Below, in pieces: positions 12,126 to 29,850 of a DNA stretch of 49,007 nucleotides (position 1 is the first letter of the stretch; each line of letters begins with the position of its first letter). The notes under the pieces were generated by a model that searched no databases, had not been told where the DNA came from, and saw nothing but the letters and a program-made list of their open reading frames with translations. Source of the stretch: Flavobacteriaceae bacterium (lineage in GTDB: Bacteria > Bacteroidota > Bacteroidia > Flavobacteriales > Flavobacteriaceae); the NCBI GenBank assembly GCA_029268635.1, contig JAQWNL010000045.1, positions 1 through 49,007 of the forward strand. Reading direction: 5' to 3'. A program made the position numbers and the translations under genes.

Positions 12126-12410
12126 ATGAAGTATTTAGTTATTAGTAGAGGAGGTTCTTTAGTTCATGGAGCTAAAAAAGAAAATCTTCAAAAAGCAAAA
12201 GAAATGTTACAAAAAGGATTAGATTCTGGAAAAGTGGAAGCTTGTTACGGGATTGTCTCAGGAGGAACGGTATGGGTTATTAATGCAGATAGTCACGCAG
12301 CTTTAGCTCGTGGTTTGAAAGATTTTAATAGGTCTGGTGATCATCGTGTAGAAGTAATTCCAGTTTTAGATGGAATAGGAACATTAGATGCTCATATTGC
12401 AGGCAAATAA
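12126..12410 (+). CDS. Small dimeric alpha+beta barrel protein (DUF3303/muconolactone-isomerase-like)
   Basis: 94 aa with pattern MKYLV...GKVEACYGIVSGGTVWVINADSHAAL...VEVIPV. Confidence 0.55.
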   Translation: MKYLVISRGGSLVHGAKKENLQKAKEMLQKGLDSGKVEACYGIVSGGTVWVINADSHAALARGLKDFNRSGDHRVEVIPVLDGIGTLDAHIAGK

Positions 12411-12487: not shown

Positions 12488-14977
12488 ATGAAGACTTATC
12501 AGTTTTTTTGTATTGTAGATAAAAGTAAATCTGGTTTAATAATACAGATAAGCAAATTTATTCTTCGCTTAAAAAATAATCCAAATCAACAACTATCTTA
12601 TTTTCTTCCAGAAATACCTCATGAAATTGGTATAAGACTTATAATTCTTATCACTAATGTTAAAACTCTTGATCAGAAATTAAAAAAAACTATTAAGATA
12701 TTGGAATCAAACGATTCAATCCGATTTTTCCCCAATGAAAAAATATATATTACAAATCATAATTTAAAACCTGGAAAAACGGTATTCCTATTTCCTGGGT
12801 TTGGGTCTGAATTTCCAGAAATGTTAACAGGAACATCATCTAAATTTAAAGTTGTTTCAAAATGGATGAACATATTCGAAGATTTTCACAACAGAACTGA
12901 TAAAAATAATTCAATCAGTCAGGATGAATGGCTAGAATCCTTTTTAGTAAAAAAAAATTATGGCGTTACTGAAATAGGTCCAATAGGATCAATTGCTTCA
13001 TTAGCTTTTAACGATATTTTGCATACTTTGAATATTAAGTGTGATGCCATGATTGGTCACAGCAATGGTGAAAATGCAGCACTAATTTCATCTGGAATAT
13101 TAAACTTTAGTTCAAAGGATAAAATTTTAAAAATCCTACAATTGCTATCAGAATTCCCGCAATTGAAAAATAAAAATGGCGTTTATCTAGCCGTAAATAA
13201 TTTTTCTAAAAAGAATATTGATGAATTGTTATACCAATATTCAAACGATGTTTTTCTAGCAATGAACAACTGTCCAGGACAACAAGTTGTGTTTGCAAAA
13301 TTAGATTCTCGTGAATCAGTTATTGAATTTATTAAAAAAAGATATGGCTTAGTTTTCGAATTGACTACGGATCATCCTTATCATACAAAGGCATTTGAAG
13401 AGTCATTGGATTATTTAAACCCTATATACAGCCAATTTCAAATTATTAAAGGAATTATTCCTGTTTATAGCTGTGTCAATGCTAAATTATTTCCGGATGA
13501 TGAAGAGGGAATTCGAGATTTAGCTTTGCGTCAATGGATAGAACCTGTTGATTTTCAAAAAACCATTAAAACAGCTTACGAAGAAGGAGCAAGAACTTTT
13601 ATTGAAGTTGGTCCTAATAATCGACTTTCAGGATTTGTTCTTGATTCCTTGAAAGGAAAGAATATTTTGATGGTTAATTGTAGTAAAGAAAATACTTCTG
13701 CTCTCGATATGATCATTGAAATGTGTGCAAAGTTATGGGTGAATAATCATACAGTCGATTTGTCTTATTTCACAAAAAATATTGAATTCAATTTAGTTGA
13801 TAATCAAGCTGCAACAGATTCAAAATCAATAATAAATAGCGAAAAAATATTTGAAGGGCATCAAGAATTAATGCAACAATTTTTAAAAGTAAATGATGCT
13901 GTAACAAAATCTTTTTTAAATAAATTGAATGCTGTACCCAAAGCAATTGAAGACACCTCGATAATTCATGAAATAAATGATTTGTTATTGAATGGAAAAT
14001 ATAAAAAGACGGACTTAGGCCTTGAATTTATAGGGACTTTAGATCTCTCTAAACAAAAACTAATTAACGATCATTCCATGGGTGGAGCATTACCCGTTGT
14101 GCCTTTTACGGTTAGTCTCGAGTTACTAGCGGAAATAGGAACACAACTAATTAAACCAAATAATGGTTGTTTATCAGTGTTTGATTCAAGTGGAAATCAA
14201 TGGTTGGATTTTGAGCGAAATATAATTGAATTGAAAATCACGGCGAATTTGGAAGTTAGTGATTGTGAGAAAATTGTCGATATTAAAGTTTACAATGTCA
14301 CGGATAAAATGGATTCCAAAATTCCAGCTTTCCAAGGAAAAGTAAAATCGATTATAAACACAAACAAGGTGTCTATTATTGAACTTGGCGAAACAAAAAA
14401 TAGCGCTACCATAAGTATGAGTGATTTTTATAAAGACCACTTATTTCATGGAACTTGTTTTAAAAGTATGCACAGGATAAATTATTGGAATAATCAAGGT
14501 GTTGAAGCCATATTTAAAATGCCAGATTTATCTAATGGAATTGAAGGGATTTCGTCTCCTGAATTTCTTATTCCAGGTCCAATGTTGGATAGCACAGGAC
14601 AATTGATAGCTTATTGGCTCTATGAAGAAGGAATGAAGGACTACGCAATTTTCCCTTTTTATCTGGGATCATTTGATCAGTATAGTAAATTTCCTTCTGC
14701 GGGAATTTCAATATTATGTAGAGCCAAAATCAGCAAAGAATCGTCAGTAATCACTGGCAATTTTGAGTTTATAGATTCTAATGGAAATTGCATCGGGAGG
14801 TTGAACAATTTTCGATTAAAAGTGTTTAATAACGAATGGATTCCACCGCTTTTGATGAATAGGTTAAGTGATGGAAATCCTGAAACGCTTACTGCAGAAT
14901 TTTTAAACGAAGGTGGAGGCATTTGGAAAAAAATATTAGGGAAACTCAAGTTGAAAAATGAAGAATATACTCACTGA
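12488..14977 (+). CDS. PKS partner protein: KS-AT linker + acyltransferase + dehydratase (no KS domain)
   Basis: FLFPGFGSE, GHSNGE, NNCPGQQV, HPYHT, FIEVGP (AT); HSMGGALPVVP and LFHG...LDSTGQ (DH His/Asp dyad). Confidence 0.85.
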   Translation: MKTYQFFCIVDKSKSGLIIQISKFILRLKNNPNQQLSYFLPEIPHEIGIRLIILITNVKTLDQKLKKTIKILESNDSIRFFPNEKIYITNHNLKPGKTVFLFPGFGSEFPEMLTGTSSKFKVVSKWMNIFEDFHNRTDKNNSISQDEWLESFLVKKNYGVTEIGPIGSIASLAFNDILHTLNIKCDAMIGHSNGENAALISSGILNFSSKDKILKILQLLSEFPQLKNKNGVYLAVNNFSKKNIDELLYQYSNDVFLAMNNCPGQQVVFAKLDSRESVIEFIKKRYGLVFELTTDHPYHTKAFEESLDYLNPIYSQFQIIKGIIPVYSCVNAKLFPDDEEGIRDLALRQWIEPVDFQKTIKTAYEEGARTFIEVGPNNRLSGFVLDSLKGKNILMVNCSKENTSALDMIIEMCAKLWVNNHTVDLSYFTKNIEFNLVDNQAATDSKSIINSEKIFEGHQELMQQFLKVNDAVTKSFLNKLNAVPKAIEDTSIIHEINDLLLNGKYKKTDLGLEFIGTLDLSKQKLINDHSMGGALPVVPFTVSLELLAEIGTQLIKPNNGCLSVFDSSGNQWLDFERNIIELKITANLEVSDCEKIVDIKVYNVTDKMDSKIPAFQGKVKSIINTNKVSIIELGETKNSATISMSDFYKDHLFHGTCFKSMHRINYWNNQGVEAIFKMPDLSNGIEGISSPEFLIPGPMLDSTGQLIAYWLYEEGMKDYAIFPFYLGSFDQYSKFPSAGISILCRAKISKESSVITGNFEFIDSNGNCIGRLNNFRLKVFNNEWIPPLLMNRLSDGNPETLTAEFLNEGGGIWKKILGKLKLKNEEYTH

Positions 14978-15092: not shown

Positions 15093-15401
15093 ATGGAAAG
15101 AACATTACCTGAAATTAGAGACGCAATTAAAGACATTCTAGATGAAATGATAGAGATGTATGATTTACCAGCTACAGAAATTAAAGATGATTTATTATTG
15201 ATCGAAACTTTAGGGTTTTCATCAGTGGATATTATGCATATGCTTGCATCTGTAGATATGAGATTCGAAAGACATTTGCCGTATGATAAAATAATGTTGA
15301 AAAACGATGAGTACGTAACCGATCTAAGTTTTGGAGAGATTGTCAATTTTGTCCACGAGAATTTTGATTTCGCTTCAACAGGGCCTAAAAAAATGTCATA
15401 G
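15093..15401 (+). CDS. Discrete acyl carrier protein
   Basis: Acidic 102-aa protein with LIETLGFSSVDIMHML (variant GxDS) and LSFGEIVNFV. Confidence 0.85.
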   Translation: MERTLPEIRDAIKDILDEMIEMYDLPATEIKDDLLLIETLGFSSVDIMHMLASVDMRFERHLPYDKIMLKNDEYVTDLSFGEIVNFVHENFDFASTGPKKMS

Positions 15402-15404
15402 AAA

Positions 15405-16187
15405 ATGAAGAAACTAATAATAAGCGCAGATGATTTTGGATTAACAGAAAGTGTAACAAAAGGAATTTCTGAAAGTATTCTTGATGGTGCTGTAACACGA
15501 ACGTCTGCAATGATGTGTACGAATGGGGCAGACTGGATTAAGAAATATAAAAATGGTATTGATGGTAAAATTGGGTTACATCTTCAATTAACAGATGGAA
15601 CTCCATTATTACCGTCTGAAGAGGTTTTATCGCTTATTGATGCAGAAGGAAATTTTCCATCTAAATCGAAACAACTAGGAAATGTAAATCATCTAGAAAT
15701 TGAAAAAGAATGGGAAGCTCAAATGGCAGCTTTATTGAACTTAGGAATTATTCCAAGTCATATTGATACACATCATAACGTTCACCGCTTCCCAAAAATT
15801 TTTAAAGTATATTGTGCAATTGCGGAAAAATATAAACTTCCATCAAGAGCATTGTCTTCAAACATGGCCAAAAAACTTAATTCTATCGGTTTATTAGGTA
15901 GTAATTTATGTCTTGAAAAATGGTGTGGAGAAAATGTAACAATTACTAGTCTAGTTAATCACACGCTAAGCGCCTTTAGATCAATTGAAAATAATGGAAC
16001 AATAGAGTTGATGTGTCACCCGGGTTATGTAGATAATAATCTGGAAGCACGATCACATTATTTACTGGCAAGAGAACAAGAATTGGCAGTATTTCTAGAT
16101 CCACAATTGAAAACGCTGTTGGCAAATCACAATATTGAATTGGTTGAAAACAACACAATATATTCTTTAAATACTTTAAAATGGTAA
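15405..16187 (+). CDS. YdjC/ChbG/HpnK-family carbohydrate deacetylase
   Basis: LIISADDFG, IGLHLQL, SHIDTHHNVH, ELMCHPG and REQEL motifs. Confidence 0.92.
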   Translation: MKKLIISADDFGLTESVTKGISESILDGAVTRTSAMMCTNGADWIKKYKNGIDGKIGLHLQLTDGTPLLPSEEVLSLIDAEGNFPSKSKQLGNVNHLEIEKEWEAQMAALLNLGIIPSHIDTHHNVHRFPKIFKVYCAIAEKYKLPSRALSSNMAKKLNSIGLLGSNLCLEKWCGENVTITSLVNHTLSAFRSIENNGTIELMCHPGYVDNNLEARSHYLLAREQELAVFLDPQLKTLLANHNIELVENNTIYSLNTLKW

Positions 16188-16900
16188 AGAACTTGACTTT
16201 TGACACAAAACCACTTGTTATCCATGCTCAAGGGCCGCATGATAACAAACCGTATTGGAAACCAATTCGAGATAATTTTTTTGCCTCACCGAAAAAGAAT
16301 ATTAAGCTAGTAGATGATTTAACTATATTTACTTGGAACAATGGTCATGAAGCAATGGGGGTTTTTGAAAAAAGTATGGAGCATCTTGGGTTGCCTTGTA
16401 TGATTCTTGGTGCTGGTGTAGAGAATTGGCAAAACAGTAAGCACAAACCATCTCTTACATATGAAGCATTGAAAAATATTGATACCCAGTATATTATGGG
16501 TGTTGATTCTCGTGATGCTATCTTAATTGATGATCCAGATATAATTTTACAATTATTCTTAAAGAATTTCGATTGTGATTTAGTTTTTTCTGCAGATTTA
16601 ATGAATTGGCCAAATATTATTAAATTTAAAAAATTCGAGGATAAATGTGCTAAAGGGGTTGATTCAGATTACAAATACTTAAATAGTGGAGCCTTTATCG
16701 GAAAGACAGATTTTTGCTTAGATTTTTTTAAAAAGGCCTCTGAAACAGAACCAGTTCCGCAAGCACCAAAGGCCGATCAAGGAATTTTTAAACAAATTTT
16801 TATGGACTATTATCCAAAAGTACAGTTGGACTACAATTGCCAGTTATTTCAAAATATAGGATTTGTATTTCGTAAAACATTAGAAGTGACTGAAAATTAG
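16181..16900 (+). CDS. PLOD/LH3-type GT-A glycosyltransferase domain, circularly permuted
   Basis: ILGAGVENW, GVDSRD, LVFSADLMNWP, YLNSGAFIG, DQGIF, LDYNCQLFQNI; the motif NLTFDTKPLVIHAQG lies at the N-terminus. Confidence 0.8.
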   Translation: MVKNLTFDTKPLVIHAQGPHDNKPYWKPIRDNFFASPKKNIKLVDDLTIFTWNNGHEAMGVFEKSMEHLGLPCMILGAGVENWQNSKHKPSLTYEALKNIDTQYIMGVDSRDAILIDDPDIILQLFLKNFDCDLVFSADLMNWPNIIKFKKFEDKCAKGVDSDYKYLNSGAFIGKTDFCLDFFKKASETEPVPQAPKADQGIFKQIFMDYYPKVQLDYNCQLFQNIGFVFRKTLEVTEN

Positions 16901-16901
16901 A

Positions 16902-17795
16902 ATGAAAGAACAAATTCTTATAAGTTATGAATGGGCAATTGCTATCTATAGAGGTAAAACTCCATCTAAGCTCGAACCTTGGATTGAGGCCCCTGAAACA
17001 GTGCTTACATTTGAAGATGTTACGGACGTCAAAGCAGATTTCGTTGCTGATCCTTTTATGATTTTAATTAATGATTTATGGTATATGTATTTTGAAGTGT
17101 TGAATAACACGTCAGGTCTTGGAGAAATTGGCTATGCAATAAGTTCGGATTGCATACAATGGACCTATAGAAAAATTATTTTGAGAGAAAAATTTCATCT
17201 TTCATATCCAATGGTTTTTGAAAATAATCAAGAATTATATATGATTCCCGAGACTCGACAAGCTGGTGAAATTAGATTATACAAAGCTGATGCATTTCCA
17301 GAAAAATGGAGACAAGAAAAAGTACTAGTTAAAGGAAACTATGCCGATGCAACAATATTCAATAATGAAGATCAATGGTGGATGTTTGCTCTTAAAGGAA
17401 CGAAAGACCTTCATTTATTTTACTCAGATTCTTTGTTGGGTGATTGGATTTCGCATCCTGCCAATCCTATTATAGAAAATAATATGAAAACGAGTCGTCC
17501 TGCGGGAAGAATAATAAAAGAAAACGGAAGCGTTTATCGATTGGCTCAGGACGGTGTTCCTCTTTATGGAAATAAAGTTAGAATGTTTAAAATAATAAAT
17601 TTGAACCGCACCAGCTATGAAGAAAGAGAATTGGATGAAAGTCCAATTTTAAAAGGATCAAGAAAAGGATGGAATTCAATTGGAATGCACCACGTTGATG
17701 CACATCAATTGGAAAATAAAAGTTGGATAGCTTGTGTTGACGGAGCAAATCCAAAGTTTAAGCAACTTAAGAATTTGAAAACGGAAATAAAATAG
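16902..17795 (+). CDS. Five-bladed beta-propeller, GH43-clan-like / GINT1 N-terminal-domain-like protein
   Basis: FVADPF, FHLSYP, YMIPE, ADAT, HPANPI, SRPAG and GMHHVD motifs. Confidence 0.7.
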   Translation: MKEQILISYEWAIAIYRGKTPSKLEPWIEAPETVLTFEDVTDVKADFVADPFMILINDLWYMYFEVLNNTSGLGEIGYAISSDCIQWTYRKIILREKFHLSYPMVFENNQELYMIPETRQAGEIRLYKADAFPEKWRQEKVLVKGNYADATIFNNEDQWWMFALKGTKDLHLFYSDSLLGDWISHPANPIIENNMKTSRPAGRIIKENGSVYRLAQDGVPLYGNKVRMFKIINLNRTSYEERELDESPILKGSRKGWNSIGMHHVDAHQLENKSWIACVDGANPKFKQLKNLKTEIK

Positions 17796-17802
17796 GACAA
17801 AA

Positions 17803-18957
17803 ATGCCAACACATAAAAATAAAATATGTTTTGCTACTGGAGAGTTTTTTCCTACTGTTGGAGGACTATCAAAGTCTGCAACAAGAGTTGTTAAAATGTT
17901 GACGGCATCAGGGTTTGAAATGCATGTTATTGTACCTATTCAAGGAATAGTTTCAAATTTAATAGTTGATCCAGAAGAAGCGAATGAAGCTTTAATATAT
18001 CGTGTGTCAGTTGGTAATGATATTCAAAATCATAATGGAAGTGCATTGGTAAAAGCCATTAGTCAACTAGATGCAAAGTTAAATTTTGATCTTTTCCACG
18101 GTTTCTTTTTATCAATGGCTTATGTGTGTTGTCTTGGAATGAATAAAAAGAATCGACCATTGATCTCTAGTATCCGAGGTAGCGATGCAATAATTTGGAC
18201 ACAGCCAACCATGAAGAACTTACTTAGAGTGGTAATGAAAAAGACCACTTGTTTAACATCCGTAAACTCAGTGCTATTGTCTACTGTTCTGCAAAGTAGT
18301 GGAATAGAGGTAGTATCAAAATTTATCAAAAATTCAATTGAATTGATCTCAGATACAGTTTGGAATGTTGATGCGATGACCTCAGGAAAAATTGGAACAC
18401 TTGGCAAATTTCAAAAGTGTAAGGAAATTGAAACCTTACTTGAATCTTATAATAAGACAGATGTCTTGTTAAGAAACAATTTAACGTTAATAGGTGATTT
18501 TCCGAATAGTCAATTAAAGATAAAATACCTTAATAAAATTGAATTCTTAAAACTTCAAGATGAAGTTGTTTTAACAGGTTTTTTAGATCAAACTGATGTT
18601 ATTAAAAGTTTAAGCGATTTGAATGTTTTTGTAAGTACTTCTTCATCTGAAGGATTCCCAAATGCTTTGTTAGAAGCTGCATCTATTGGAGTACCAATTG
18701 TTGTTGCAGGTTTTGATGGGATAGAGGAATACTGTGAAAATAATAAGAATGCATTGATTGTGCCAATTGGAGATGCAGAAGCAACAGCACAAGCAATTAC
18801 TTCAATTCTAACGAACAAAGAAATGGCACAACATTTATCAAATGGGGCAATTGATTTTGCAAAATCATTGTCTCCTGATAGCGAAAAAAATCAATGGGTT
18901 GATCTCTACCAAGAACAATTAGAACTGCACTTTCAAACAAACTTTCAAAACAATTAA
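17803..18957 (+). CDS. Glycosyltransferase family 4
   Basis: EFFPTVGG, SIRGSD, SEGFPNALLEA (ExxxxxxxE). Confidence 0.9.
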   Translation: MPTHKNKICFATGEFFPTVGGLSKSATRVVKMLTASGFEMHVIVPIQGIVSNLIVDPEEANEALIYRVSVGNDIQNHNGSALVKAISQLDAKLNFDLFHGFFLSMAYVCCLGMNKKNRPLISSIRGSDAIIWTQPTMKNLLRVVMKKTTCLTSVNSVLLSTVLQSSGIEVVSKFIKNSIELISDTVWNVDAMTSGKIGTLGKFQKCKEIETLLESYNKTDVLLRNNLTLIGDFPNSQLKIKYLNKIEFLKLQDEVVLTGFLDQTDVIKSLSDLNVFVSTSSSEGFPNALLEAASIGVPIVVAGFDGIEEYCENNKNALIVPIGDAEATAQAITSILTNKEMAQHLSNGAIDFAKSLSPDSEKNQWVDLYQEQLELHFQTNFQNN

Positions 18958-18958: not shown

Positions 18959-21900
18959 ATGTTTAAAGTAATCACATATTCTCCACTTCATTTATCCAAT
19001 ACAGCATTGGCTATTGAAACAGTTAAAGCTGATAGTATCGCTTTATTTGATCTTGAGTATTGCGAAGATTCAAAAATTGAAAGATCAATTGAAAATCTTA
19101 AGTATACCTTAAGTACCATTCCTGAAAATTCTACAATTGGACTAAAATCTCCTTTGAATAAAATCAGTTTTTATAAAGTACTTATAGATTTGTTGATTGG
19201 CCATAAATTAATTCTTGTTCTAAGTGATTTACAAAATACAAAAAAAGAAAAAGTAGCTATTCCTGATTGGATTTTAAATTCTGATTTAGAGATTTGGGGA
19301 GAGATTACTTCAAAATCACAAGAGTGGATACTCCATGATAACAATATTCAATCTATAATAATTAAAGGAAATGAATCAGGTGGAAGTATTGGTTCTGAGT
19401 CCTCTTTTGTATTATCAGCTTATTTAATTAATAAGAGTGAAAAAGATGTTTTCGTTCAGGGTGGAATAGGATTTCATACCGCTGCTGCTTGTTTTGTAGC
19501 AGGAGCAAACGGTGTTATTATTGATGATCATTTATTAGCGATGAGTCAGTCGCCATTTCCAAATCAGTGGAAAAAAATAATAAAACATTTAGCAATTGAA
19601 GATACCGTTATAACTAGTAAAAACAACAGAAATTATAGAACAATAAACCATCCTTTGTTTAAAAATTCTGAAGGCATTGGTTGGGATAATCCTTCCCTAG
19701 TAAAATGGCCTGTAGGGCAAGCAATTGGTTTTGCGCATGAATTGGCAAGTGAATACAAAACAGTTGGTCGTTTAATTAATGCTATACTGGCAAATGCACT
19801 GCTAAACATTAAAGAAGCAAAAGTACATAAACCCTTGGCACCAAATTCAAAATTGTCAGTATCTCACGGTACGCGTTTTCCAATTGTTCAAGGGCCAATG
19901 ACTAGGGTTAGTGATGTACCTAATTTTATTGATGCAGTGGCTAAATCTGGAGGGTTACCATTTTTAGCATTATCCATGATTTCAGGAAAAGCGGTAACAG
20001 AATTACTAGCCGAAACACATAGTCAACTTGGAGAGAAGCCCTGGGGAGTTGGTATTTTAGGATTTGTTCCTGAAGAATTAAGAGTTCACCAATTCAATGA
20101 GATAAAAAAAATAAAGCCACCTTTTGCTTTAATAGCAGGAGGTACTATAGCTCAAGTTAAAGAGTTTGAGGAAGAAGGAATCTCAGCATATATCCATGCA
20201 CCGGTTCCAAGTTTATTGAAAATATTTTTAGAAAAAGGATGTAAGCGTTTCGTTTTTGAAGGACGCGAATGTGGAGGTCATGTAGGGCCAATTGGAAGCT
20301 TTACCCTTTGGGAAAGTGCGATTAAGATTCTGCTTGAATTGCCAAAAGGGGAAGCGGAACATATTCATGTGTTGTTTGCTGGTGGAATTTATAATTACAT
20401 GTCAGCTTCTATGATAGCGGCAATGTCTGGACAGCTAGCAGCAAAAGGAATTAAGGTTGGTGTTCTAATGGGAACTGCTTATCTATTTACATCTGAAGTA
20501 TGTGAATCTGGTGCAATTCTTCCAAGGTTTCAGCAAACTGCAATTGATTGTGAAACAACGGCAGTAATTGAAACAGGTCCAGGTCACGCTATTCGATGCG
20601 CAAATACCCCTTTTATTCAAGAGTTTGAATCTGAAAAAGAAAAAGGAAATAAAGATTTAGATAACTTGACTTTGGGTCGATTAAGAATTGCATCCAAAGG
20701 AATTAAAAGAAATGAGATTGGAGAATTATCTAAAATTTCTGAAAAAGACCAATACGATAATGGAATGTTTATGCTGGGCGAAGTGGCTGCAATGATGTAT
20801 TCATTAACAAGCATGGAAGAATTGCATGTTGAAGTCTCCAAAAAAGGTAATGAATTACTTGGAAAAGTAGAATTACCTGAGAAAAAGAGAGTAGAGTTGA
20901 CCGCCTCTAATATTGCAGTCATTGGGATTTCAACGATCCTTCCTAAAGCGGATTCACCAGATGATTTTTGGACAAATATTATTAATAAAGTTGATGCTAT
21001 AACTGAAGTGCCATTGAGCAGATGGGATTGGAGACTTTATTACGATGAGGATAATAAAAAACGAGATAAGATAAATTCTAAATGGGGAGGTTTTATAGAC
21101 GATGTTATTTTTGATCCCTTAAAATTTGGAATTCCACCACATTCATTGAAATCAATAAGTCCTGCTCAGTTATTACTTTTGGAAGCAGTTGATAGAGCAT
21201 TAAATGACGCTGGTTATGGAGACGGGGGTTTTGATAATGAACACACATCCGTTATCGTTGGAAGTGATGGAAGTAGTACGTTAAAAACGCAATACACTAC
21301 TCGAGCATTGTCACCATTATCGATGGATTTGCTCACAAAAGAAGATTTAGATCGACTACCTGAATGGAATGAAGAATCTTTCCCTGGTGTTTTAACAAAT
21401 GTACTGGCAGGACGTATTGCTAATAGATTCAATCTAGGAGGTGCTAATTTTACGGTGGATTCGGCTTGTGCTTCTTCGTTGACTGCTATTGACTTAGCAA
21501 TTAAAGAATTGGAACATGGAAATAGCAACATGGTAATTGCTGCTGGCGCTGACATTGCTCAATCTCCATTTTCATATACAGCATTTAGCAAAACTCAAGC
21601 GCTTTCGCCAACTGGTAAATCACAGCCGTTTAATAAAGATGCGAATGGTATTGTAATTAGTGAAGGAATTGCTGTTGTTTTATTAAAACGATTAGAAGAC
21701 GCCGAAAGAGATGGTGATAAAATCTATTGTGTAATTAAAGGAGCAGCGAACTCAAGTGATGGGAAAGGATTAGGCCTTACTGCTCCTCGTTCTGGAGGTC
21801 AAGAAAAAGCACTTAACAGAGCCTATCTAAAAGCAGGTTATTCACCTTCAACATTAGGAAGTTACGAAGCACACGGTACAGGAACTTCATTTGGAGATAA

Positions 21901-24900
21901 AGTTGAATTAACGTCAATTAATAATGTTCTTGAAAATGCTGGTGCGAATGAAAATTCTTGTGTTGTTGGGTCGGTAAAGTCCTTAATTGGTCATACCAAA
22001 ACTACAGCAGGAATTGTTGGTTTAATAAAAAGTGCATTGTCTTTACATTATAAAACTTTAGCACCCCATCCTATGAACGGTGATCCAATTGATTTATTAA
22101 AAAATAACACGACACCAGTTTATCTTCTAGAAGAAGCTCGACCTTGGTTTAAGGATGCTATTCATCCTAGAAGAGCAGGAATAAGTGCTTTTGGTTTTGG
22201 GGGAACAAATACACATGTTACTATTGAAGAATATAGAAATAATACAAAGAAAAATTTGATTGGGCATGAAAAATGGCCAGCTGAACTGTTCATATTTGAA
22301 GCGTTAACGAGTGATGAAATGCTTAAAACAGTGAACGGTTGGGCGGCAGCTTTAAAAGATGGACTGACCAACTCACTTAAAGATTTATCCTTTATCTCAT
22401 TCTGTGAAAGTCAAACTAAAAAGAACTTAAAGGTGAAGCTTAGTATTGTGGCTGAGAATAAGGAAAGTCTCATACATCTATTGGAAAGAGTTGCGCTGAA
22501 CTTATCTGAAAAAGATGGAAATATATTACTTCCACCTCAAATTACATTGAACTTAAATTCAGAAGAGACTAAAGGAAAATTAGGATTTGTCTTTCCAGGA
22601 CAAGGATCACAATACTCCAATATGGCTCAAGAAAACACCTTGTATATTAAGGAATTGCGTGAAGTTATTGATTTAGCCAATGATCAATTGAATGGAGCTA
22701 TTAAGATGGATAAATTACTATTTCCAAAAGCTTCATTAAATCAAGAAACAACGGATTATTGGCAGGATAAATTAAGAGCGACCGAAAATGCCCAACCAGC
22801 TATTGGTACAATATCAATGGGATATTTGAATTTTCTGAAATCATTAGAGATTAAGCCAGAAGTTGTTGCAGGACACAGTTATGGGGAATTTACAGCGTTA
22901 CATGCCGCAGGGGTTCTGAGTTCAAACGATTTGTTTACTATTTCTCAAAAGAGAGGATCAATAATGGCTGGCAGTTGCGAGGTAGATGGAACAATGGCTG
23001 TTGCTTTTGGAACTCCAATACAAATCTCCTCTTATTTGAATACTGATGTTTATATTGCAAACTTAAATTCTCCAAAGCAAACCGTTATTTCAGGTGAAAG
23101 AAATGCTGTTTATGAAGCAATGGCTGAAATAAAAAAGAACGGTATAAAGGTAAAGGAAATCGCCGTTGCAGGTCCATTTCATACTCCGTTTTTTAAAATA
23201 GCTCAACAACCGTTAATAGAGGCTATAAGTAGCTTGTCTTTTAATAGCCCTAAAATCCCTGTTTATTCTAATACTACTGGAAATGTTTATCCTCAAGATT
23301 CAGAGATGATAGGTAAATTATTAAATCAACACCTTTTGAGTCCTGTTCATTTTTTAAATGAAATAGAACAGATGTACAAAGACGGAGTTCGACTATTTCT
23401 TGAAGTTGGTCCGAATAACGTATTAACTGGATTAATTGATCAAATTCTAGAAGGTAAATCATATAAAGCAATAGCCGTTGAAGGTCAAGGTGGTGGAATG
23501 AAAGGAATTTTAAGCGCGGTTGGTGCTGTTTTTGCAGATGGATATAATTTGAATATTGAGAGTTTATTTGAAGGGAGAAACTGCGAATTTCTTAATCTAT
23601 CCGAAGCAATTAAAGAATCTAAAAAGAAAACACATAGTGATGCAACTGTCTTATTACACGGTGGAGGTGTTCGAAAAATTGATGAAAATATAGCTATCAC
23701 AGGGATTTCACCGCTTATTGATGCAACAAAAAGAAAAGAAATTAAATCTGTTGAAGTTTTAAAATTATCGCTTGCTTCTGGTCAATTGAATACTAACGAT
23801 CAGCTACTTGCGGGCTATCAATCTTATCAACAAACAATGCAACAATTTCTCGCAAGTCAAGAAACAATGATGGAGCTTTTTTTAAAAGGAGAACCGATTC
23901 TAGATCAACAAATAAATAATACTGATATTCCTTTAGCTGCAGTAAAAATGGATCAAATACCTCTTATAAATGAGGAGATTGATTCTAATGAAATAGAGGG
24001 AACCAAAACTCAATTTATTGAAAATGAGAAATCTGTAAATAGAGATGATGTTGCAGCGAAAATGATTGCTATTATCAGTGAAAGAACAGGGTATCCTTTA
24101 AATATGCTGACTGAACATATAGATTTAGAAGCGGAGTTGGGAATTGACTCAATCAAACGGATGGAAGTACTTGATAAGGTTTTGAAAGAATTATCAATAG
24201 ATCATGAAAGAAAACTTCAAGGATTTATGCCACAATTAATGCGAGCGAAATCAATCAATGAATTTTTAAATATCGCTTTCAATAAAGAAATTGTTCAAAA
24301 GCTGGGCGAAGTTACCGAAACCTCAAAAACGAATAAAATTCCTCTTGTAGCAATTAAAAATGATACAAATAAAGAAACGTGTGCACGTTTTGTTATGGAG
24401 TCCGTAATACAGGAATTGCCATTTAAAGGAAATCCAGTATTAACAGGGGTTCACCTTATAACTTCTGATTCGGGAAATATAGCAAATTTGGCAGCAAAGA
24501 AGATTAAATCTTTCGGCGGAACTCCTATTGTTTTAGGTGAAGATATTTTGGCTTCATTTGATCTTTTGGAAGCAGAACTTTTGATTTTATTTAAAAAATA
24601 TCCTGAAATTTCAAGTGTGATTCACTGTGCGCCTTTGAGTAAAATCTCAATGCCAGAAGAGTTGAAAGGATGGAAAAACCTAACGCAAATCCAATCAAAA
24701 AGTTTGTTTCAAGTTCTGCGATTTGCTGCGCTTGAAGATGAGAAAGCAATTCATTTTCCAATCAAAAAAGTGATAACAACTTCTTCATTTGGAGGTTATT
24801 TTGGTAGAAAGAATAAACCTTCAAATGGACTTCCTTGTTCAGGAGGGAATGCTGGAATGTTAAAAGCACTTGTTAAAGAACACACTGATATTGATATTAA

Positions 24901-25879
24901 AGTTTTAGATTTTGATAGTTTACTGCTTGAAAGTGAAGTTGCATACCGAATTGTGCGTGAATTAGCGAATACGAGCGAAAAGATTGAAATTGGTTATCCA
25001 AATGGTGAACGGGTAGTTTTCTATCCTGTTGCCGCTGAATTAGAAAATCAAGATAGTTCAGAAGATCATCGTTTAGATGAGAATTCAGTTGTGTTAGCAA
25101 CTGGTGGAGCAAAGGGAATTACAGCTGAGATTACTAAATCAATGATGGTTCCTGGTATGAAGCTTATAGTTGTAGGTAGGTCAAAATCGATTGATTTAGA
25201 AATTATAAATGAAGGAGGTATAAATAAATCATTTCATCTATTAATTGAGCAGGGCGTTGATGTAGAATATTTTTCTTTAGATGTAAAGGATGATCAAGCA
25301 TTCAAAGAACTGATTGAATATGTTTATAGTACTTATGGAAGAATAGATGCCGTAATTCATGGAGCAGGAATTATAGAAGATGATCATATAGAATTAAAAA
25401 AAATCGCCTCTTTCAATAATGTGTTTGATACAAAGGTGGATACAGCATTTTTACTATTCAAATATTTGCGTCCAGAATCCTTAAAATTATTGGTGTTTTT
25501 CGGTTCTGTATCCGGACGATTTGGAAATCAAGGCCAAACGGATTATGCTGCAGCTAATGAGGTATTGAATCGTTTTGCTTGGTATTTACATCAAAAATGG
25601 TCGAACACTAGAACGCTTACCATTAATTGGGGACCCTGGAGTATGATAGGAATGGCATCCCCAATGGTTATTCGACTATTAAAAAGTCAAGGAATTGGAC
25701 CAATTCATCCAGATGAAGGGTGTGCTTTTTTCTTGCGTGAAATTCGCCAAGGAAGCAATGAAACTTCAGAAGTGATCGCTGGAGATGGACCTTGGGGAAA
25801 TTCTGACGAAATGATTCTGCCAGAATTCGAACTTGAACATATTTTTAATCAAACGGCTATTCACAGTATTGCAGAATAA
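18959..25879 (+). CDS. Iterative type I PKS, PUFA-synthase-like: degenerate NMO/ER + NMO/ER - KS - AT - ACP - KR
   Basis: ER: KGNESGG (first copy), PIVQGPMTRVSD and EGRECGGHVG; KS: DSACASS, EAHGTGT, IGHTK, FGFGGTN; AT: FPGQGSQ, GHSYGE, GPFHT; PfaA-type ACP: ERTGYP...LEAELGIDSIKR; KR: TGGAKGIT, YAAAN, WGPW. No DH or TE. Confidence 0.93.
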   Translation: MFKVITYSPLHLSNTALAIETVKADSIALFDLEYCEDSKIERSIENLKYTLSTIPENSTIGLKSPLNKISFYKVLIDLLIGHKLILVLSDLQNTKKEKVAIPDWILNSDLEIWGEITSKSQEWILHDNNIQSIIIKGNESGGSIGSESSFVLSAYLINKSEKDVFVQGGIGFHTAAACFVAGANGVIIDDHLLAMSQSPFPNQWKKIIKHLAIEDTVITSKNNRNYRTINHPLFKNSEGIGWDNPSLVKWPVGQAIGFAHELASEYKTVGRLINAILANALLNIKEAKVHKPLAPNSKLSVSHGTRFPIVQGPMTRVSDVPNFIDAVAKSGGLPFLALSMISGKAVTELLAETHSQLGEKPWGVGILGFVPEELRVHQFNEIKKIKPPFALIAGGTIAQVKEFEEEGISAYIHAPVPSLLKIFLEKGCKRFVFEGRECGGHVGPIGSFTLWESAIKILLELPKGEAEHIHVLFAGGIYNYMSASMIAAMSGQLAAKGIKVGVLMGTAYLFTSEVCESGAILPRFQQTAIDCETTAVIETGPGHAIRCANTPFIQEFESEKEKGNKDLDNLTLGRLRIASKGIKRNEIGELSKISEKDQYDNGMFMLGEVAAMMYSLTSMEELHVEVSKKGNELLGKVELPEKKRVELTASNIAVIGISTILPKADSPDDFWTNIINKVDAITEVPLSRWDWRLYYDEDNKKRDKINSKWGGFIDDVIFDPLKFGIPPHSLKSISPAQLLLLEAVDRALNDAGYGDGGFDNEHTSVIVGSDGSSTLKTQYTTRALSPLSMDLLTKEDLDRLPEWNEESFPGVLTNVLAGRIANRFNLGGANFTVDSACASSLTAIDLAIKELEHGNSNMVIAAGADIAQSPFSYTAFSKTQALSPTGKSQPFNKDANGIVISEGIAVVLLKRLEDAERDGDKIYCVIKGAANSSDGKGLGLTAPRSGGQEKALNRAYLKAGYSPSTLGSYEAHGTGTSFGDKVELTSINNVLENAGANENSCVVGSVKSLIGHTKTTAGIVGLIKSALSLHYKTLAPHPMNGDPIDLLKNNTTPVYLLEEARPWFKDAIHPRRAGISAFGFGGTNTHVTIEEYRNNTKKNLIGHEKWPAELFIFEALTSDEMLKTVNGWAAALKDGLTNSLKDLSFISFCESQTKKNLKVKLSIVAENKESLIHLLERVALNLSEKDGNILLPPQITLNLNSEETKGKLGFVFPGQGSQYSNMAQENTLYIKELREVIDLANDQLNGAIKMDKLLFPKASLNQETTDYWQDKLRATENAQPAIGTISMGYLNFLKSLEIKPEVVAGHSYGEFTALHAAGVLSSNDLFTISQKRGSIMAGSCEVDGTMAVAFGTPIQISSYLNTDVYIANLNSPKQTVISGERNAVYEAMAEIKKNGIKVKEIAVAGPFHTPFFKIAQQPLIEAISSLSFNSPKIPVYSNTTGNVYPQDSEMIGKLLNQHLLSPVHFLNEIEQMYKDGVRLFLEVGPNNVLTGLIDQILEGKSYKAIAVEGQGGGMKGILSAVGAVFADGYNLNIESLFEGRNCEFLNLSEAIKESKKKTHSDATVLLHGGGVRKIDENIAITGISPLIDATKRKEIKSVEVLKLSLASGQLNTNDQLLAGYQSYQQTMQQFLASQETMMELFLKGEPILDQQINNTDIPLAAVKMDQIPLINEEIDSNEIEGTKTQFIENEKSVNRDDVAAKMIAIISERTGYPLNMLTEHIDLEAELGIDSIKRMEVLDKVLKELSIDHERKLQGFMPQLMRAKSINEFLNIAFNKEIVQKLGEVTETSKTNKIPLVAIKNDTNKETCARFVMESVIQELPFKGNPVLTGVHLITSDSGNIANLAAKKIKSFGGTPIVLGEDILASFDLLEAELLILFKKYPEISSVIHCAPLSKISMPEELKGWKNLTQIQSKSLFQVLRFAALEDEKAIHFPIKKVITTSSFGGYFGRKNKPSNGLPCSGGNAGMLKALVKEHTDIDIKVLDFDSLLLESEVAYRIVRELANTSEKIEIGYPNGERVVFYPVAAELENQDSSEDHRLDENSVVLATGGAKGITAEITKSMMVPGMKLIVVGRSKSIDLEIINEGGINKSFHLLIEQGVDVEYFSLDVKDDQAFKELIEYVYSTYGRIDAVIHGAGIIEDDHIELKKIASFNNVFDTKVDTAFLLFKYLRPESLKLLVFFGSVSGRFGNQGQTDYAAANEVLNRFAWYLHQKWSNTRTLTINWGPWSMIGMASPMVIRLLKSQGIGPIHPDEGCAFFLREIRQGSNETSEVIAGDGPWGNSDEMILPEFELEHIFNQTAIHSIAE

Positions 25880-25907: not shown

Positions 25908-26984
25908 ATGAGGAAGAAAATAAAAAAGTTTATAGAAAAACTTGTAACAATACTGTTTATGAGTTATGTGCTGTTAATTAAAGTCTTACATCTTCCTTCG
26001 AAATGGTTTTCAAATCGAGTTCAGCAAATTATGAACAACTGGACATATTCAATGTTGTGGACGTATATTTCATCTTTTGCTACGAGAGTTTATTTGGATC
26101 AACCTTGTGAATATAAAATAGTAACAGATCAGCCAAAGACAATCGTTGATGATCAATTCAAATTAACACCTGAACAAATAAAGGGATTTCATATGAATGG
26201 TTTTTTAGGTCCCTTAACTTTAGTTTCAGAAGATCAAATGTCAATTTTTCGCACAAAACTTGAAAATGAACTTGATATAGATTCAAAAACATTTGGATTT
26301 AAAACTGTTAGAGATAGACATTTAGATGCCCCATTTATAATGGAGATGTTTAAAAAACCTGAGATAACAGAAGTTTTGGCTCAATTGTTAAGTCCAAATA
26401 TATTATTATGGCGGTCTCATGTTTTTAATAAACCACCTGGAGCAGCTTCAATTCCATGGCATCAAGAATCAACTTACATGTCAGAAGATTATAAACAGCC
26501 AATTCTTCATACAAAAAATAAAAACGATCTTTTTCAACTTACTGTATGGATTGCAGTTGATCCTGCAACTTTGGAGAATGGATGCATAGAGTTTATTTTA
26601 GGATCACATTCTAAAATGAGAAAAATTTCAATTGGTAAAGGAGATAAATTTTATTCATCACAATTCGCAATGGATGTAGATTTAAACAATTCTGAAATTG
26701 TCCCGATGCCTTTAAAACCTGGGCAATTTGTTGTTTTTTGTGAAAGATGTGTTCACGGTAGTAAAGGTAATATGTCGGATACAAGAAGAATGGGAATGAC
26801 TTTTAGAGCAATTACTACTGAAACATCAGCTTATGCGAATCAGAAGAAACACTACGCTGCACATCATCAATTAACTTGGGATTTGAAAAACTGGAAAATT
26901 GTGACATTACGAGGAGAAGATAAATTTAAGTTGAGTAAAACTGAAATTGAAAAGGAATCAGAGAAAATTATAGAAGAGATGTAA
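25908..26984 (+). CDS. Fe(II)/2-oxoglutarate oxygenase of PhyH/SyrB2 (chlorinating enzyme)-like type with N-terminal hydrophobic extension
   Basis: RDRHLD, LLWRSHVFNKPPG, WHQES, LTVWIA, ENGCIEF, LKPGQFVVF, VHGS, RRMG, LRGED. Confidence 0.85.
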   Translation: MRKKIKKFIEKLVTILFMSYVLLIKVLHLPSKWFSNRVQQIMNNWTYSMLWTYISSFATRVYLDQPCEYKIVTDQPKTIVDDQFKLTPEQIKGFHMNGFLGPLTLVSEDQMSIFRTKLENELDIDSKTFGFKTVRDRHLDAPFIMEMFKKPEITEVLAQLLSPNILLWRSHVFNKPPGAASIPWHQESTYMSEDYKQPILHTKNKNDLFQLTVWIAVDPATLENGCIEFILGSHSKMRKISIGKGDKFYSSQFAMDVDLNNSEIVPMPLKPGQFVVFCERCVHGSKGNMSDTRRMGMTFRAITTETSAYANQKKHYAAHHQLTWDLKNWKIVTLRGEDKFKLSKTEIEKESEKIIEEM

Positions 26985-27605
26985 ATGGTAAATGTATTTA
27001 AATCTGTGACTGGCGTATTTGTTGAGAACACTTATTTTCTCGTTAATTCGAAAGAAAAGTGGGGGGTAATTGTAGATCCTGGTCAGGGAGCATTGGAGTT
27101 TCTAGAACAATTAAATATGGAAGAGATCACTTGGAAGGCTATTTTTCTTACACATGCTCATTTTGATCACCTTTTGGGATTACGTAAGGTAGTTCAATAT
27201 GTTAATGTTCCGATTTATTTACATAAAGAAGACTTATTTTTATACGATCTTTTTGTAGAAGAAGCTTCCAAATTTGGATACAAGGAGGAAGTTTTACCAC
27301 AACCTGATTTATTCTGGAAAGATAATGATAAGATTGTAATTGGTAAAACGAAATTTGAAGTAATCCACACTCCAGGTCACACTCCTGGAAGCGTATGTTT
27401 AAAATGGGAAAATCAACTTATGACAGGTGATACATTGATGTACAGAACAATTGGTAGAACAGATTGGTTTGGATCATTTGAAGAGATCCAGAAAAGTATT
27501 TCGAAGAAGCTATTTAGTCTTCCTGATAATACCGTAATTTATCCAGGGCATCATAAAGCAAGCACTATAGCAGAAGAGAAAAGACACAACCTCGAAATTT
27601 TTTAA
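26985..27605 (+). CDS. MBL-fold metallo-hydrolase (glyoxalase II/YcbL-like)
   Basis: THAHFDH, HTPGHTPG, TGD, GRTD and YPGH motifs. Confidence 0.92.
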   Translation: MVNVFKSVTGVFVENTYFLVNSKEKWGVIVDPGQGALEFLEQLNMEEITWKAIFLTHAHFDHLLGLRKVVQYVNVPIYLHKEDLFLYDLFVEEASKFGYKEEVLPQPDLFWKDNDKIVIGKTKFEVIHTPGHTPGSVCLKWENQLMTGDTLMYRTIGRTDWFGSFEEIQKSISKKLFSLPDNTVIYPGHHKASTIAEEKRHNLEIF

Positions 27606-27607: not shown

Positions 27608-28681
27608 ATGAAAATATTATATATAGTTCCTAACCCAAATAGAATAGGTGGTGTATCTCGTTCTATTCAACGCGTTGTTCATTATTTAAAAAGCAATGGG
27701 TTAGACGTTAAACTTTTCTGTCCAGATTTTGAAGCCGAAAATGGGGTTTCAAAGTCAGAAATGATGATGATGAAGGAATTACTTACAGGATCTATGATGC
27801 AAGAATGGACCCAAAGAGTAATAGATAAAATGAAAACAGAGACTCCAGACTTAGTCGTAGGATATTATGGGAGCTCTGCAGCATACTGCGCTACTGCTGC
27901 AGCAAAGTTTTTAGATATTCCTGTTATCGCTTGTTTTCGTGGAAATGATATTAATAGAGATTTTTTTTCTTCATTTCATGCACCAAAGTTGAATTTCGTA
28001 GCACAGAATGCTACGGCAATCACAACCGTTTCTTCAGAGATGAAAGAGAAGGTAAGAACTTGGTTAGGAGTGGAGGCTAACTTTATTTCAAATTCTGTAG
28101 ATAAATCTATTTTTTACAACCGAAAGAAATTAGTAAAGGAATACAAACAAAAATGGAACCTAGGTAATCGAGCTATTGTCGGCTTATTTGGAGAATTTAA
28201 GGCTTCAAGAGGGCTAGAGCTTTTAGATCATTTAAAAGGTGAATTACAAAATGTACAAACTATAATTGTTGGCAAAGTTAGAAGCTCCATTCAGAAACAA
28301 CTGCCAGACTATGTTACTGTTATTCCTTACATTAATCAAATTGAAGAGTTGACAATAGCATATTCTCTGTGTGATGTAGTTTTTCAGCCATCTAAATACG
28401 ATGGAATGCCCAATGTTGTTCTCGAAGCTATGGCTTGTGAAAGAATCGTTCTTGCCTCTCCAACTGGAGGAATTAAAGATTTAATAAATCATGGTGAAAA
28501 TGGTTATTTGTGCAGTACTAACGATGATTGGAAAAACAATCTCAAGTTAGCACTCAATAATACTGGTACTCAAATCGGAAAAATGGCTAGAGAAAGTGTT
28601 CCAGAACCAAAGGAAGAAGCTGCCGAATTTATCTCTCTATTTTCAACAATTCTAAAAAAAAACAAAGCTCATTATAACTAA
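27608..28681 (+). CDS. Glycosyltransferase family 4
   Basis: IGGV, FRGND, YDGMPNVVLEAMAC. Confidence 0.9.
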   Translation: MKILYIVPNPNRIGGVSRSIQRVVHYLKSNGLDVKLFCPDFEAENGVSKSEMMMMKELLTGSMMQEWTQRVIDKMKTETPDLVVGYYGSSAAYCATAAAKFLDIPVIACFRGNDINRDFFSSFHAPKLNFVAQNATAITTVSSEMKEKVRTWLGVEANFISNSVDKSIFYNRKKLVKEYKQKWNLGNRAIVGLFGEFKASRGLELLDHLKGELQNVQTIIVGKVRSSIQKQLPDYVTVIPYINQIEELTIAYSLCDVVFQPSKYDGMPNVVLEAMACERIVLASPTGGIKDLINHGENGYLCSTNDDWKNNLKLALNNTGTQIGKMARESVPEPKEEAAEFISLFSTILKKNKAHYN

Positions 28682-28686: not shown

Positions 28687-29850
28687 ATGCAAAAAACACT
28701 CCTTTTTTACTGTCAACATTCTATTGGTATTGGCCATTTAGTTCGCTCTTTTGCATTGGTTAACTCTTTAAAAAAAACCTTCCTAGTGACCTTGGTTTCT
28801 GGTGGTGATTTTCCTAAGGGATTAAGTGTTCCAGATGGTATTAATTTTGTTCAACTTCCGCCAATAGGATTGAATTTGAATAAATGTCTTGAAGCAATTG
28901 AGAGCGATGAACCCGTTTATAAGGTTATGAAATCAAGACAAAATAAAATCATGAGGATTTATAATGAAATTGAACCTGATGTTTTTGTTTCGGAGTATTT
29001 TCCATTTGGAAAAATTCAATTTATAGGAGACTTATTAGCTCTTTTAAAACGAACAAAATTTAGTAATAAACCCGTTACTGTTGTTTGCAGTTTACGTGAT
29101 ATTTTAGAGCCTACAAGTACGACTAAGAAAATACATCAAGACTTTAGTACTAAAATGATAAATGAGTACTATAGTAGTATTTTGGTTCATGGAGATGAAA
29201 ATTTTATTACATTAAACAAAACCTGTCCACACTTAAGTAGAATGAATGTTCCAGTTTATTATACGGGATATGTTACTGATGAAAAATACCAGACAAAGAT
29301 TGATCGTACGGTTTTTAACGAAATTGTATTATCTGCTGGAGGAGGAAAAATAGCATCGCCATTTATTACAAAAATGGTATGTTCTTTTAAGAAATTTGGA
29401 TTTGGAGAAGGCATAAGTTTAAAGGTTATTGCTGGACCTATATTTCCAAAAGGCGATTGGATTGAATTGCAAGAATTGGTAAAAAATGAACCTGGTATTG
29501 TATTGCTTCGGTCAGTTGAAAACTTAACTAATGTATGGAAAAAGGCAAAATTATCAATTAGTATGGGGGGGTACAATACTTTAATGGAAGTAATTTGTAG
29601 TAGAATTCCTGCATTAATAATTCCTTATTGCAACGAAAGTAATAGAGAGCAAGAAATTAGAGCAATTAAGCTGCAAAAAGAAGGATTAGTTGAAACTACA
29701 GATTTTGAAAAATTAAGTAAAAAAGAATTAACCGAAGCTGTTAAAAATGCATTGAATTTTAATCCTGTAGATAAAGACCTTAACTTAAATGGAGCCGAGA
29801 ATACTAGACTAATTATCGAACAACAATGTTTAGAATATTCAACACCTTAA
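28687..29850 (+). CDS. GT-B glycosyltransferase with GT28 C-terminal-like domain (COG4671-like)
   Basis: YCQHSIGIGH, EYFPFG, SLRDIL, SAGGG, SMGGYNT and EQEIRA motifs. Confidence 0.85.
   Translation: MQKTLLFYCQHSIGIGHLVRSFALVNSLKKTFLVTLVSGGDFPKGLSVPDGINFVQLPPIGLNLNKCLEAIESDEPVYKVMKSRQNKIMRIYNEIEPDVFVSEYFPFGKIQFIGDLLALLKRTKFSNKPVTVVCSLRDILEPTSTTKKIHQDFSTKMINEYYSSILVHGDENFITLNKTCPHLSRMNVPVYYTGYVTDEKYQTKIDRTVFNEIVLSAGGGKIASPFITKMVCSFKKFGFGEGISLKVIAGPIFPKGDWIELQELVKNEPGIVLLRSVENLTNVWKKAKLSISMGGYNTLMEVICSRIPALIIPYCNESNREQEIRAIKLQKEGLVETTDFEKLSKKELTEAVKNALNFNPVDKDLNLNGAENTRLIIEQQCLEYSTP

Follow-up and report, generated by a model that had tools for sequence, protein, structure and literature searches.

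A permuted lysyl hydroxylase-type glycosyltransferase

We analysed a 49,007-nucleotide stretch of DNA (the window; contig JAQWNL010000045.1 of assembly GCA_029268635.1) from a Flavobacteriaceae bacterium and focused on its gene at 16181..16900, which encodes a glycosyltransferase (hereafter GT) related to the glycosyltransferase domain of human lysyl hydroxylase 3 (LH3, PLOD3). GT is almost certainly a genuine circular permutant. Both LH3-homologous blocks are present and swapped in order, and the new termini are adjacent at a loop of LH3. The strand bearing the metal-binding histidine, which is C-terminal as a norm in the PLOD glycosyltransferase family PF25342, precedes the core in GT. The initial annotation of this DNA had proposed a circular permutant with an intact metal site, and sequence, family conservation and two predicted models all support it. 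The gene and its parts are:

16181..16900, + strand: permuted PLOD/LH3-type GT-A glycosyltransferase, 239 residues (Pfam, PDB sequence search, model)
16181..16294, + strand: moved piece, residues 1-38, comprising a hairpin strand, the His15 strand and a helix; C-terminal in LH3 (profiles, split model)
16223-16225, + strand: codon of His15, equivalent to LH3 His253 (alignment to LH3)
16304..16897, + strand: collinear core, residues 42-239, equivalent to LH3 34-234 (VIA-align, Z 19.6, root mean square deviation (r.m.s.d.) 2.3, 186 aligned)
16505..16516, + strand: DSRD metal motif; Asp109/Asp112 equivalent to LH3 Asp112/Asp115, with Arg111 replacing the uracil-stacking Tyr114 (alignment)

The start ATG of GT overlaps the stop codon of the upstream YdjC gene (15405..16187). 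The motifs run from MVKNLTFDTKPLVIHAQGP (residues 1-19) through DSRD (109-112), FSADLMNWP (136-144), YLNSGAFIG (166-174) and ADQ (198-200) to LDYNCQLFQNI (216-226), after which 13 residues remain to the stop, exactly the order and short tail first described for this 239-residue open reading frame (ORF). A truncated gene with its end downstream is out, since the next ORF is a GINT1_N protein and close relatives stop at the same place. Residues 54-227 match positions 13-190 of the 246 in the PF25342 profile (E 4e-17), and the score of 62.7 bits passes the gathering cut-off of 27. The match stops at position 190, which leaves ~55 positions at the end of the profile without a collinear counterpart. 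Among PDB sequences, mimivirus R699 matches best (E 2.3e-10), followed by human LH3 (E 2e-6). By score and fold GT is a member of PF25342 that works like the LH3 and R699 glycosyltransferases, and it is not a collagen glucosyltransferase.

The last LH3 motif, lacking from the C terminus, was recovered at the protein start as had been proposed: residues 2-20 match LH3 240-258, with His15 at the position of His253. HMMER reports a second, out-of-order stretch in which residues 2-20 pair with an LH3 segment ending HGNGP, at 6.5 bits, which alone is not significant. A 36-column profile was built from the first 36 residues of each of 27 sequences, those of the window and of 26 of the 29 loci found by a GTDB scan with close-subfamily patterns. 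In a blind search of 177,635 PDB sequences with this profile, five LH3 sequences came top (E 0.007-0.028; next 0.21), matched over residues 240-258 in full-length numbering with His15 aligned to His253, a residue that binds Mn2+ together with Asp112 and Asp115 (PMC6082870). The initial annotation had expected residues 1-25 to align with the C-terminal strand of the PLOD glycosyltransferase domain, and the match found covers residues 2-20. With unpermuted metagenomic relatives the same profile aligns at residues 220-243 (hhalign, probability 96%, E 4.6e-9). Using a 22-column profile of the wider family, the motif is located behind the core in 110 of 116 unpermuted relatives, among them animal PLODs, and none of 1160 shuffles exceeded 6 bits with it. 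Searched singly against Pfam, 2 of the 27 short N-terminal pieces reached PF25342 (best E 0.065). A chance motif is ruled out by the PDB profile ranking, the hhalign match and the shuffle control.

Predicted structure of GT

AlphaFold2 modelled GT with a mean predicted local distance difference test (pLDDT) of 96.2 and a predicted template modelling score (pTM) of 0.93, with strands at residues 2-4 and 234-236. In this model, which had been suggested as a check, the core alone superposes collinearly on LH3: VIA-align pairs residues 42-239 with LH3 34-234 (Z 19.6, r.m.s.d. 2.3, 186 residues, 23% identity). Residues 1-41 and LH3 beyond 234 remain unpaired, as a permutation requires. Z values for 13 LH3/R699 entries range from 16.8 to 19.6, and the next fold scores 11.3. 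The cut corresponds to the hairpin turn around LH3 235-239, residue 239 being equivalent to LH3 234 and residue 2 to LH3 240, and the old termini are joined by residues ~36-46 of GT.

The moved piece is predicted to dock where it does in LH3. A split model of residues 1-38, residues 42-239 and Mn scored 0.95, against 0.02 for the best control, with at least 95% contact agreement between runs and a partner pLDDT of at least 93; of 157 solved complexes 116 attain the mark for such models, as do 2 of 215 mismatched pairs. Its listed contacts include 234-5 and 112-15 (Asp112/His15), and the latter agrees with the original expectation that His15 lies near DSRD. Three points weigh against leaning on this model. 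Its pass may reflect likeness to solved LH3; the job included our own alignment and the ligand, which places it outside the calibration; and a direct His-Mn contact is not among the contacts that it reports.

We also considered a domain swap, with the N-terminal piece completing the active site of a neighbouring subunit and not that of its own chain. R699 acts as a dimer (PMC12279948) and the split model cannot distinguish cis from trans, but the single-chain model is compact and confident, with a linker pLDDT of 96-97, and linker length is conserved, making such a swap highly improbable.

Among other GT-A enzymes, the GT6 blood-group enzymes (3zgf, 1g93) align collinearly from residue 5 of the model (Z ~10.7), starting ~6 residues more N-terminal than bacterial BoGT6a does. 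From these superpositions, the GT6 N-terminal extension may fill some of the space that the moved hairpin takes up.

The permuted family and its origin

As judged by sequence comparison, the ORF is no isolated case but one of a large permuted family. Searching 5.8 billion proteins yielded 63 matches; with the query, 58 of these 64 are permuted, 3 are unpermuted and 3 have no scoring motif. A profile search of 1.84 billion representatives gave 2445 matches at E 0.001 and 215 at 1e-30. The best 150 of the 2445, a ranking that favours permuted proteins, include 148 new ones, 136 of them permuted and 12 without a scoring motif. His15 is kept in all 140 distant-relative rows aligned at that column, while D109, D112 and H15 are kept in 56/56 close relatives and in 105-106 of 106 aligned rows, H15 in all 106. 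No tandem or both-ends intermediate, with the motif on both sides of the core, came up among 370 proteins; longer proteins were covered by a word-limited search.

In a core-only tree of a random 55 of 141 dereplicated permuted rows and all 36 dereplicated unpermuted ones, the two kinds part on one branch (SH-aLRT 100). When 15 more rows were added in a quick tree, P0365, a long-branch row of unpermuted appearance, fell among the permuted rows. The tree that keeps all 56 permuted rows together is 60.5 log-likelihood units better and is not rejected (p-AU, from the approximately unbiased test, 0.935), so a single origin of the permutation is allowed, not shown. Since the histidine is described as C-terminal and part of the GT-A common core (PMC7185993), the permuted order would be the derived one. 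Eight of 401 genomes of the window's phylum matched; they hold the window's own gene, one other permuted gene and 7 unpermuted genes in 6 genomes.

Fusions to GT64, GT2, sulfotransferase, methyltransferase or radical-SAM domains occur in some permuted members. At a distant permuted locus (L052/L060) the neighbour is a methyltransferase gene, and the 8 ORFs read there (19.9 kb) include no synthase. The lipid context described below therefore belongs to the subfamily and not to the family. One permuted GT gene (L029; G005:C6:65714-66431) lies in four matching pieces in two frames and so is frameshifted or mis-assembled.

No close viral relatives were found in IMG/VR scans (A1, P0081) or when phages were searched by tblastn with the window protein, and scanning metagenomes with P0116 likewise gave nothing. 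P0116 gave 10 partial matches against phages, the best of them unpermuted. Virus-rich clusters aligned over the full permuted length came from the Atlas search of homologue P0053 alone, and are a lead only. We found no printed report of the permutation in the literature searched, whose scope excluded subscription journals and supplements. New here is a bacterial subfamily tied to an orphan type I fatty-acid-synthase/ACP cluster.

The gene cluster in the window

GT lies within a cluster of synthase, glycosyltransferase and modifying genes:

12126..12410, + strand: conserved 94-residue ORF of no family; relatives in 18/29 loci
12488..14977, + strand: acyltransferase-dehydratase subunit of the synthase (PF00698, PF14765)
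15093..15401, + strand: stand-alone acyl carrier protein (ACP), invariant Ser44; in 25/29 loci
15405..16187, + strand: YdjC-family carbohydrate deacetylase (PF04794); 19/29 loci
16902..17795, + strand: GINT1_N-domain protein (PF24793)
17803..18957, + strand: GT4 glycosyltransferase (PF00534)
18959..25879, + strand: type I fatty-acid/polyketide synthase, NMO-type ER-KS-AT-ACP-KR (Pfam; TIGR02813, 898 bits)
25908..26984, + strand: SyrB2/CytC3-like iron/2-oxoglutarate (Fe/2OG) enzyme, HQE replacing the halogenase HQA
26985..27605, + strand: metallo-beta-lactamase-fold hydrolase, below every curated cut-off shown
27608..28681, + strand: second GT4 glycosyltransferase (Pfam)
28687..29850, + strand: GT28-like glycosyltransferase (PF04101)
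29847..30614, - strand: phosphopantetheinyl transferase (PPTase; PF01648, PF22624)

Against TIGR02813, the model of the omega-3 polyunsaturated fatty acid (PUFA) synthase PfaA, the large synthase falls below the cut-off of 1010.1 bits. Its domain order is presumably similar to that of Azotobacter ArsA/ArsD. The 94-residue ORF belongs to a family of 85-105 residues, often with two copies per cluster and with invariant Tyr41 and Gly46-Gly47, for which there was no Pfam, NCBIfam or credible PDB match; we assume a likeness to muconolactone-isomerase-type barrels. Upstream of the cluster, at 1897-9098 on the - strand, lies an NHLP-bacteriocin-type export set (HlyD, two ABC, TolC). In the genome of locus L001 four ORFs (L039:219-7411) follow the cluster and resemble this set in size and order, the likeness being by these alone. 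Past the PPTase are two adjacent paralogous ORFs of ~220 residues (30632-31297 and 31397-32059, - strand) with no Pfam match above cut-off.

Contigs from two marine RNA library runs of the same study cover GT, one of 6,155 bases spanning 12000-18031 (run X1) and one of 3,930 bases spanning 14042-17969 (run X2); a control stretch gave short pieces alone. A quarter of the words or less is held by 13 of the 18 runs, and gaps in contig cover were not used as evidence. The cover of the GT gene fits transcription but does not show it.

A conserved synthase context

The 29 loci span Bacteroidota, Acidobacteriota, Proteobacteria, Cyanobacteria, Myxococcota and others. In 28 of them the GT gene has synthase genes within 10 kb, and in the 29th within 30 kb. 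Counting extra flanks for 14 loci, an ACP gene was found in 25, YdjC in 19, TauD in 16, GT28 in 15, GT4 in 11 and a SyrB2-like gene in 3. No product of the synthase cluster was found in the literature searched.

Runs of collagen-like (Gly-X-Y)8 were absent from the window, its 58%-complete genome and the bacterial loci, and the positive control, the locus of phage CRP-6, gave two. A collagen acceptor was rejected for lack of these repeats, with the genome 58% complete. Recruitment of the permuted enzyme to lipid or small-molecule glycosylation, as first suggested, is supported by the neighbourhood and by the absence of such repeats from the DNA searched.

A variant cluster (L017/L034, L023/L035, L025/L045, L012) adds a polyketide synthase-non-ribosomal peptide synthetase hybrid, with an O-methyltransferase in the first three loci; neither a TauD nor a SyrB2-like gene was found in these four. 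The cluster of Allorhizobium sonneratiae (L026/L049; L049:1171-2484, 12308-14498) holds a UDP-sugar dehydrogenase, a Gfo dehydrogenase and a DegT aminotransferase, a gene set that hints at an amino-uronic-acid donor.

Active site

Across 56 close relatives (44-87% identity) H15, W83, K89, D109, S110, R111, D112, D139, N168, G170 and Q200 never vary, and residue 199 is always Asp or Glu. In R699, a retaining enzyme, the donor glucose is held by N138, H216, K62 and W118/D162 beside D163/Q164, and the acceptor by E114 and N218 (PMC12279948). These residues map to N168, H15, K89, W143/A198, D199/Q200, D139 (E114) and Q17 (N218) of GT, via the PDB sequence alignment and with an inferred 3-residue offset. 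The moved piece would hence carry both a metal ligand and an acceptor-side position, since H15 and Q17 lie in it.

Three residues that LH3 needs are changed. Tyr114 is replaced by Arg111 (Arg in 56/56), Asp190 by Ala198 (Ala, Ser, Val or Thr in 56/56) and Asn255 by Gln17 (Gln, His or Pro in 50/56). In LH3 the Y114A and D190A/S mutants are nearly inactive, and N255A keeps 9% of activity by mass spectrometry (PMC6082870). The three changes point to another donor or acceptor and leave some room for lost transfer. GT might accordingly keep the fold and metal site without being a transferase to the cluster product, acting as a nucleotide-sugar hydrolase or as an inactive scaffold, the more so as both LH3 and R699 hydrolyse UDP-glucose uncoupled from transfer (PMC12279948). 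We give this little credence, because donor- and acceptor-site residues are invariant across the 56 proteins and the gene has a fixed place in a biosynthetic cluster.

Proposed function

We favour the reading that GT is an active Mn2+-dependent transferase for the lipid product of its cluster, most likely adding the first sugar, and consider this probable. In the predicted arrangement His15 at the N terminus would complete the Mn2+ site with Asp109 and Asp112, and GT would transfer the sugar of a nucleotide-sugar donor to a hydroxyl on the lipid that the fatty-acid-synthase/ACP genes around it produce. To judge from the R699 and LH3 structures, transfer would be Mn2+-dependent and retaining, with Lys89, Asn168, His15, Trp143 and Asp199/Gln200 holding the donor sugar and Asp139 the acceptor. 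Its context suggests that GT would be the core, first-sugar transferase of the cluster. The hydroxyl could be made by the ketoreductase or belong to a citrate/malate-type head group; in some clusters, possibly the window's among them, an Fe/2OG enzyme could supply it. GT28, GT4 and YdjC would then elaborate the head group. Transfer to a non-sugar hydroxyl (serine) is described for ESAG3 of trypanosomes, a PLOD-like glycosyltransferase (10.64898/2026.01.27.701950).

Several observations count against this favoured reading. The presence of GT in every locus is by selection; another glycosyltransferase that could supply a sugar (GT28 or GT4) occurs in 15 of the 20 well-read loci, those with at least 20 kb read; and LH3 and R699, the close homologues that have been characterised, both transfer glucose to a sugar, galactose or glucose (PMC12003778, PMC12279948). 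GT could instead extend a head group begun by GT28/GT4 and deacetylated by YdjC, adding a second, alpha-1,2-type sugar. Asp139, the counterpart of the acceptor-binding E114 of R699, is kept in 56/56 and would suit such a role, as would the fusion of GT28 to YdjC in L019. Nevertheless, no other glycosyltransferase was found in the bounded clusters L017/L034 and L026/L049, both of which end in unrelated genes, and in 50/56 the Asn that touches the acceptor in R699 (N218) is replaced by Gln, His or Pro. We therefore regard sugar extension as somewhat unlikely. As the sole glycosyltransferase found in those two clusters, the permuted enzyme likely adds sugar to the lipid product, as in the first-sugar reading.

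Fe/2OG enzymes and the source of the hydroxyl

The initial annotation had suggested that the glycosylated hydroxyl might be made by the cluster's Fe/2OG enzyme, a split-gene echo of the hydroxylase and glycosyltransferase of LH3. Put as a narrower case of the first-sugar reading, an Fe/2OG enzyme would hydroxylate a unit tethered to the ACP, and this very hydroxyl would be the one that the permuted GT glycosylates. An Fe/2OG gene is indeed present in 19 of the 29 loci and in 16 of the 20 well-read ones. In 8 loci TauD directly precedes GT (L014, L018-L022, L024, L026), and one record, P0198, is a TauD-GT fusion, although a single one that looks frameshifted. The window's enzyme is closest to SyrB2/CytC3, a class acting on carrier-bound substrates (PMC4019311), and it has a carboxylate-type HQE, as do 8/8 near-identical copies that hold the motif, so that the His-X-Ala/Gly motif of the SyrB2 type is absent. 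There is also precedent for glycosylation of an ACP-bound unit in MitB/MmcB (PMC8621148).

Against this coupling, neither type of Fe/2OG gene occurs in L017, L023 or L025, the last being cut by a contig end close upstream of GT. Three orthologues beside GT (L001:19726-20715, L004:20005-20706 and L005:20095-20712), one of them 76% identical to the window's enzyme, carry the halogenase-type HQA, and exchange of Ala for Asp/Glu alone gave SyrB2 no hydroxylase activity (PMC4019311). A citrate-synthase or HMGL gene is present in 15 of 16 TauD loci and in none of the 13 others, a co-occurrence from which TauD may serve that module instead. In collagen, LH3 adds glucose to galactose and it is COLGALT that glycosylates the hydroxyl (PMC12003778). 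Coupling to the Fe/2OG enzyme is thus possible but doubtful. Of the echo of LH3, the frequent presence of an Fe/2OG gene stands; the halogenase-like trio, the link of TauD to another module and the preference of LH3 for a sugar acceptor tell against the rest. Neither Fe/2OG type matches the LH3-type family PF03171, and any echo is therefore one of analogy, not descent.

The HQE/HQA pair is, from the motifs, a candidate for either a natural halogenase-to-hydroxylase switch or a loss of function. Citrate synthase-like genes (L002, L003, L018-L022, L026, L029) and HMGL-like genes (L006, L008, L009, L011, L013, L024), which encode unrelated condensing enzymes, replace each other, with TauD present in 15/15; together they suggest an alkylcitrate- or alkylmalate-type head-group module. 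The idea that the TauD and PhyH types strictly exclude each other was dropped, because the TauD-bearing cluster L002 has a distant PhyH gene (L040) a few kb past its PPTase gene.

A more far-reaching proposal joins these strands. One ancient permutation of a collagen-glucosyltransferase domain would have founded a large, unrecognised GT-A family. In one branch the enzyme would have become the core transferase of an orphan glycolipid pathway of wide occurrence, and would glycosylate an acyl unit tethered to the ACP. The hydroxyl used would be supplied by interchangeable Fe/2OG enzymes, in the window's lineage a SyrB2-type halogenase turned hydroxylase by Ala to Glu. As a whole we consider it decidedly unlikely.

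Comparison with known systems

A natural family with an N-terminal histidine shows that the GT-A fold tolerates re-threading, and collinear profiles score its members as truncated. As a single-domain bacterial protein, GT is a convenient model for LH3-type chemistry. The fixed link to the synthase cluster, in Bacteroidota, Acidobacteriota, Proteobacteria and others, offers a handle on an undescribed glycolipid or glycosylated natural product. Cultured carriers exist too, namely Flavobacterium araucananum DSM 24704, F. collinsii CECT7796, Thiocapsa marina 5811 and Allorhizobium sonneratiae.

With the glycosyltransferase domain of human LH3/PLOD3 (6WFV, 6FXR) GT shares the fold, the non-canonical DxxD, the His, NxG, the acidic-Gln pair and Lys89. 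It differs in the order of the His piece, in having no AC or lysyl-hydroxylase domain and in its lipid-synthase context. Mimivirus R699, a collagen glucosyltransferase/kojibiose synthase (9DYT), superposes on GT with Z 18.4 over 182 residues at 32% identity; its K62, W118, N138, D163/Q164 and H216 are matched in GT, and it accepts a small-molecule acceptor. R699 is unpermuted and two-domain, however, its D162 and N218 are not kept, and its E114 is Asp in GT. Unlike both proteins, GT is a 239-residue single domain in a setting with no collagen-like repeats found (window, 58%-complete genome). Trypanosome ESAG3 is similar by description, with an LH3-like GT-A fold, DxxD, His and an E/D-Q pair, whereas its His is C-terminal (H297) and its acceptor is a protein (10.64898/2026.01.27.701950).

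The unpermuted PLOD-type glycosyltransferases of bacteria and phages (L053-L059; CRP-6 gp58) share the core of GT, but in them it precedes the His motif. In 3 of 7 unpermuted bacterial ones this motif takes the HxPG form that is frequent among permuted members. Gp58 of Roseobacter phage CRP-6 (QBQ72782.1; L051:4440-6209), annotated as hypothetical, is an unpermuted PLOD glycosyltransferase fused to GT25 and lies beside collagen-like tail fibres.

Finally, the cluster shares with Pfa/Ars-type secondary lipid synthase clusters an iterative type I synthase, a PfaA-like KS-AT-ACP-KR order and a PPTase; many such synthase types have no known product (Shulse and Allen 2011, PMC3098273). Unlike the Pfa type, the window's synthase is below the PfaA cut-off, has its ER fused N-terminally and is accompanied by a stand-alone ACP and several glycosyltransferases.

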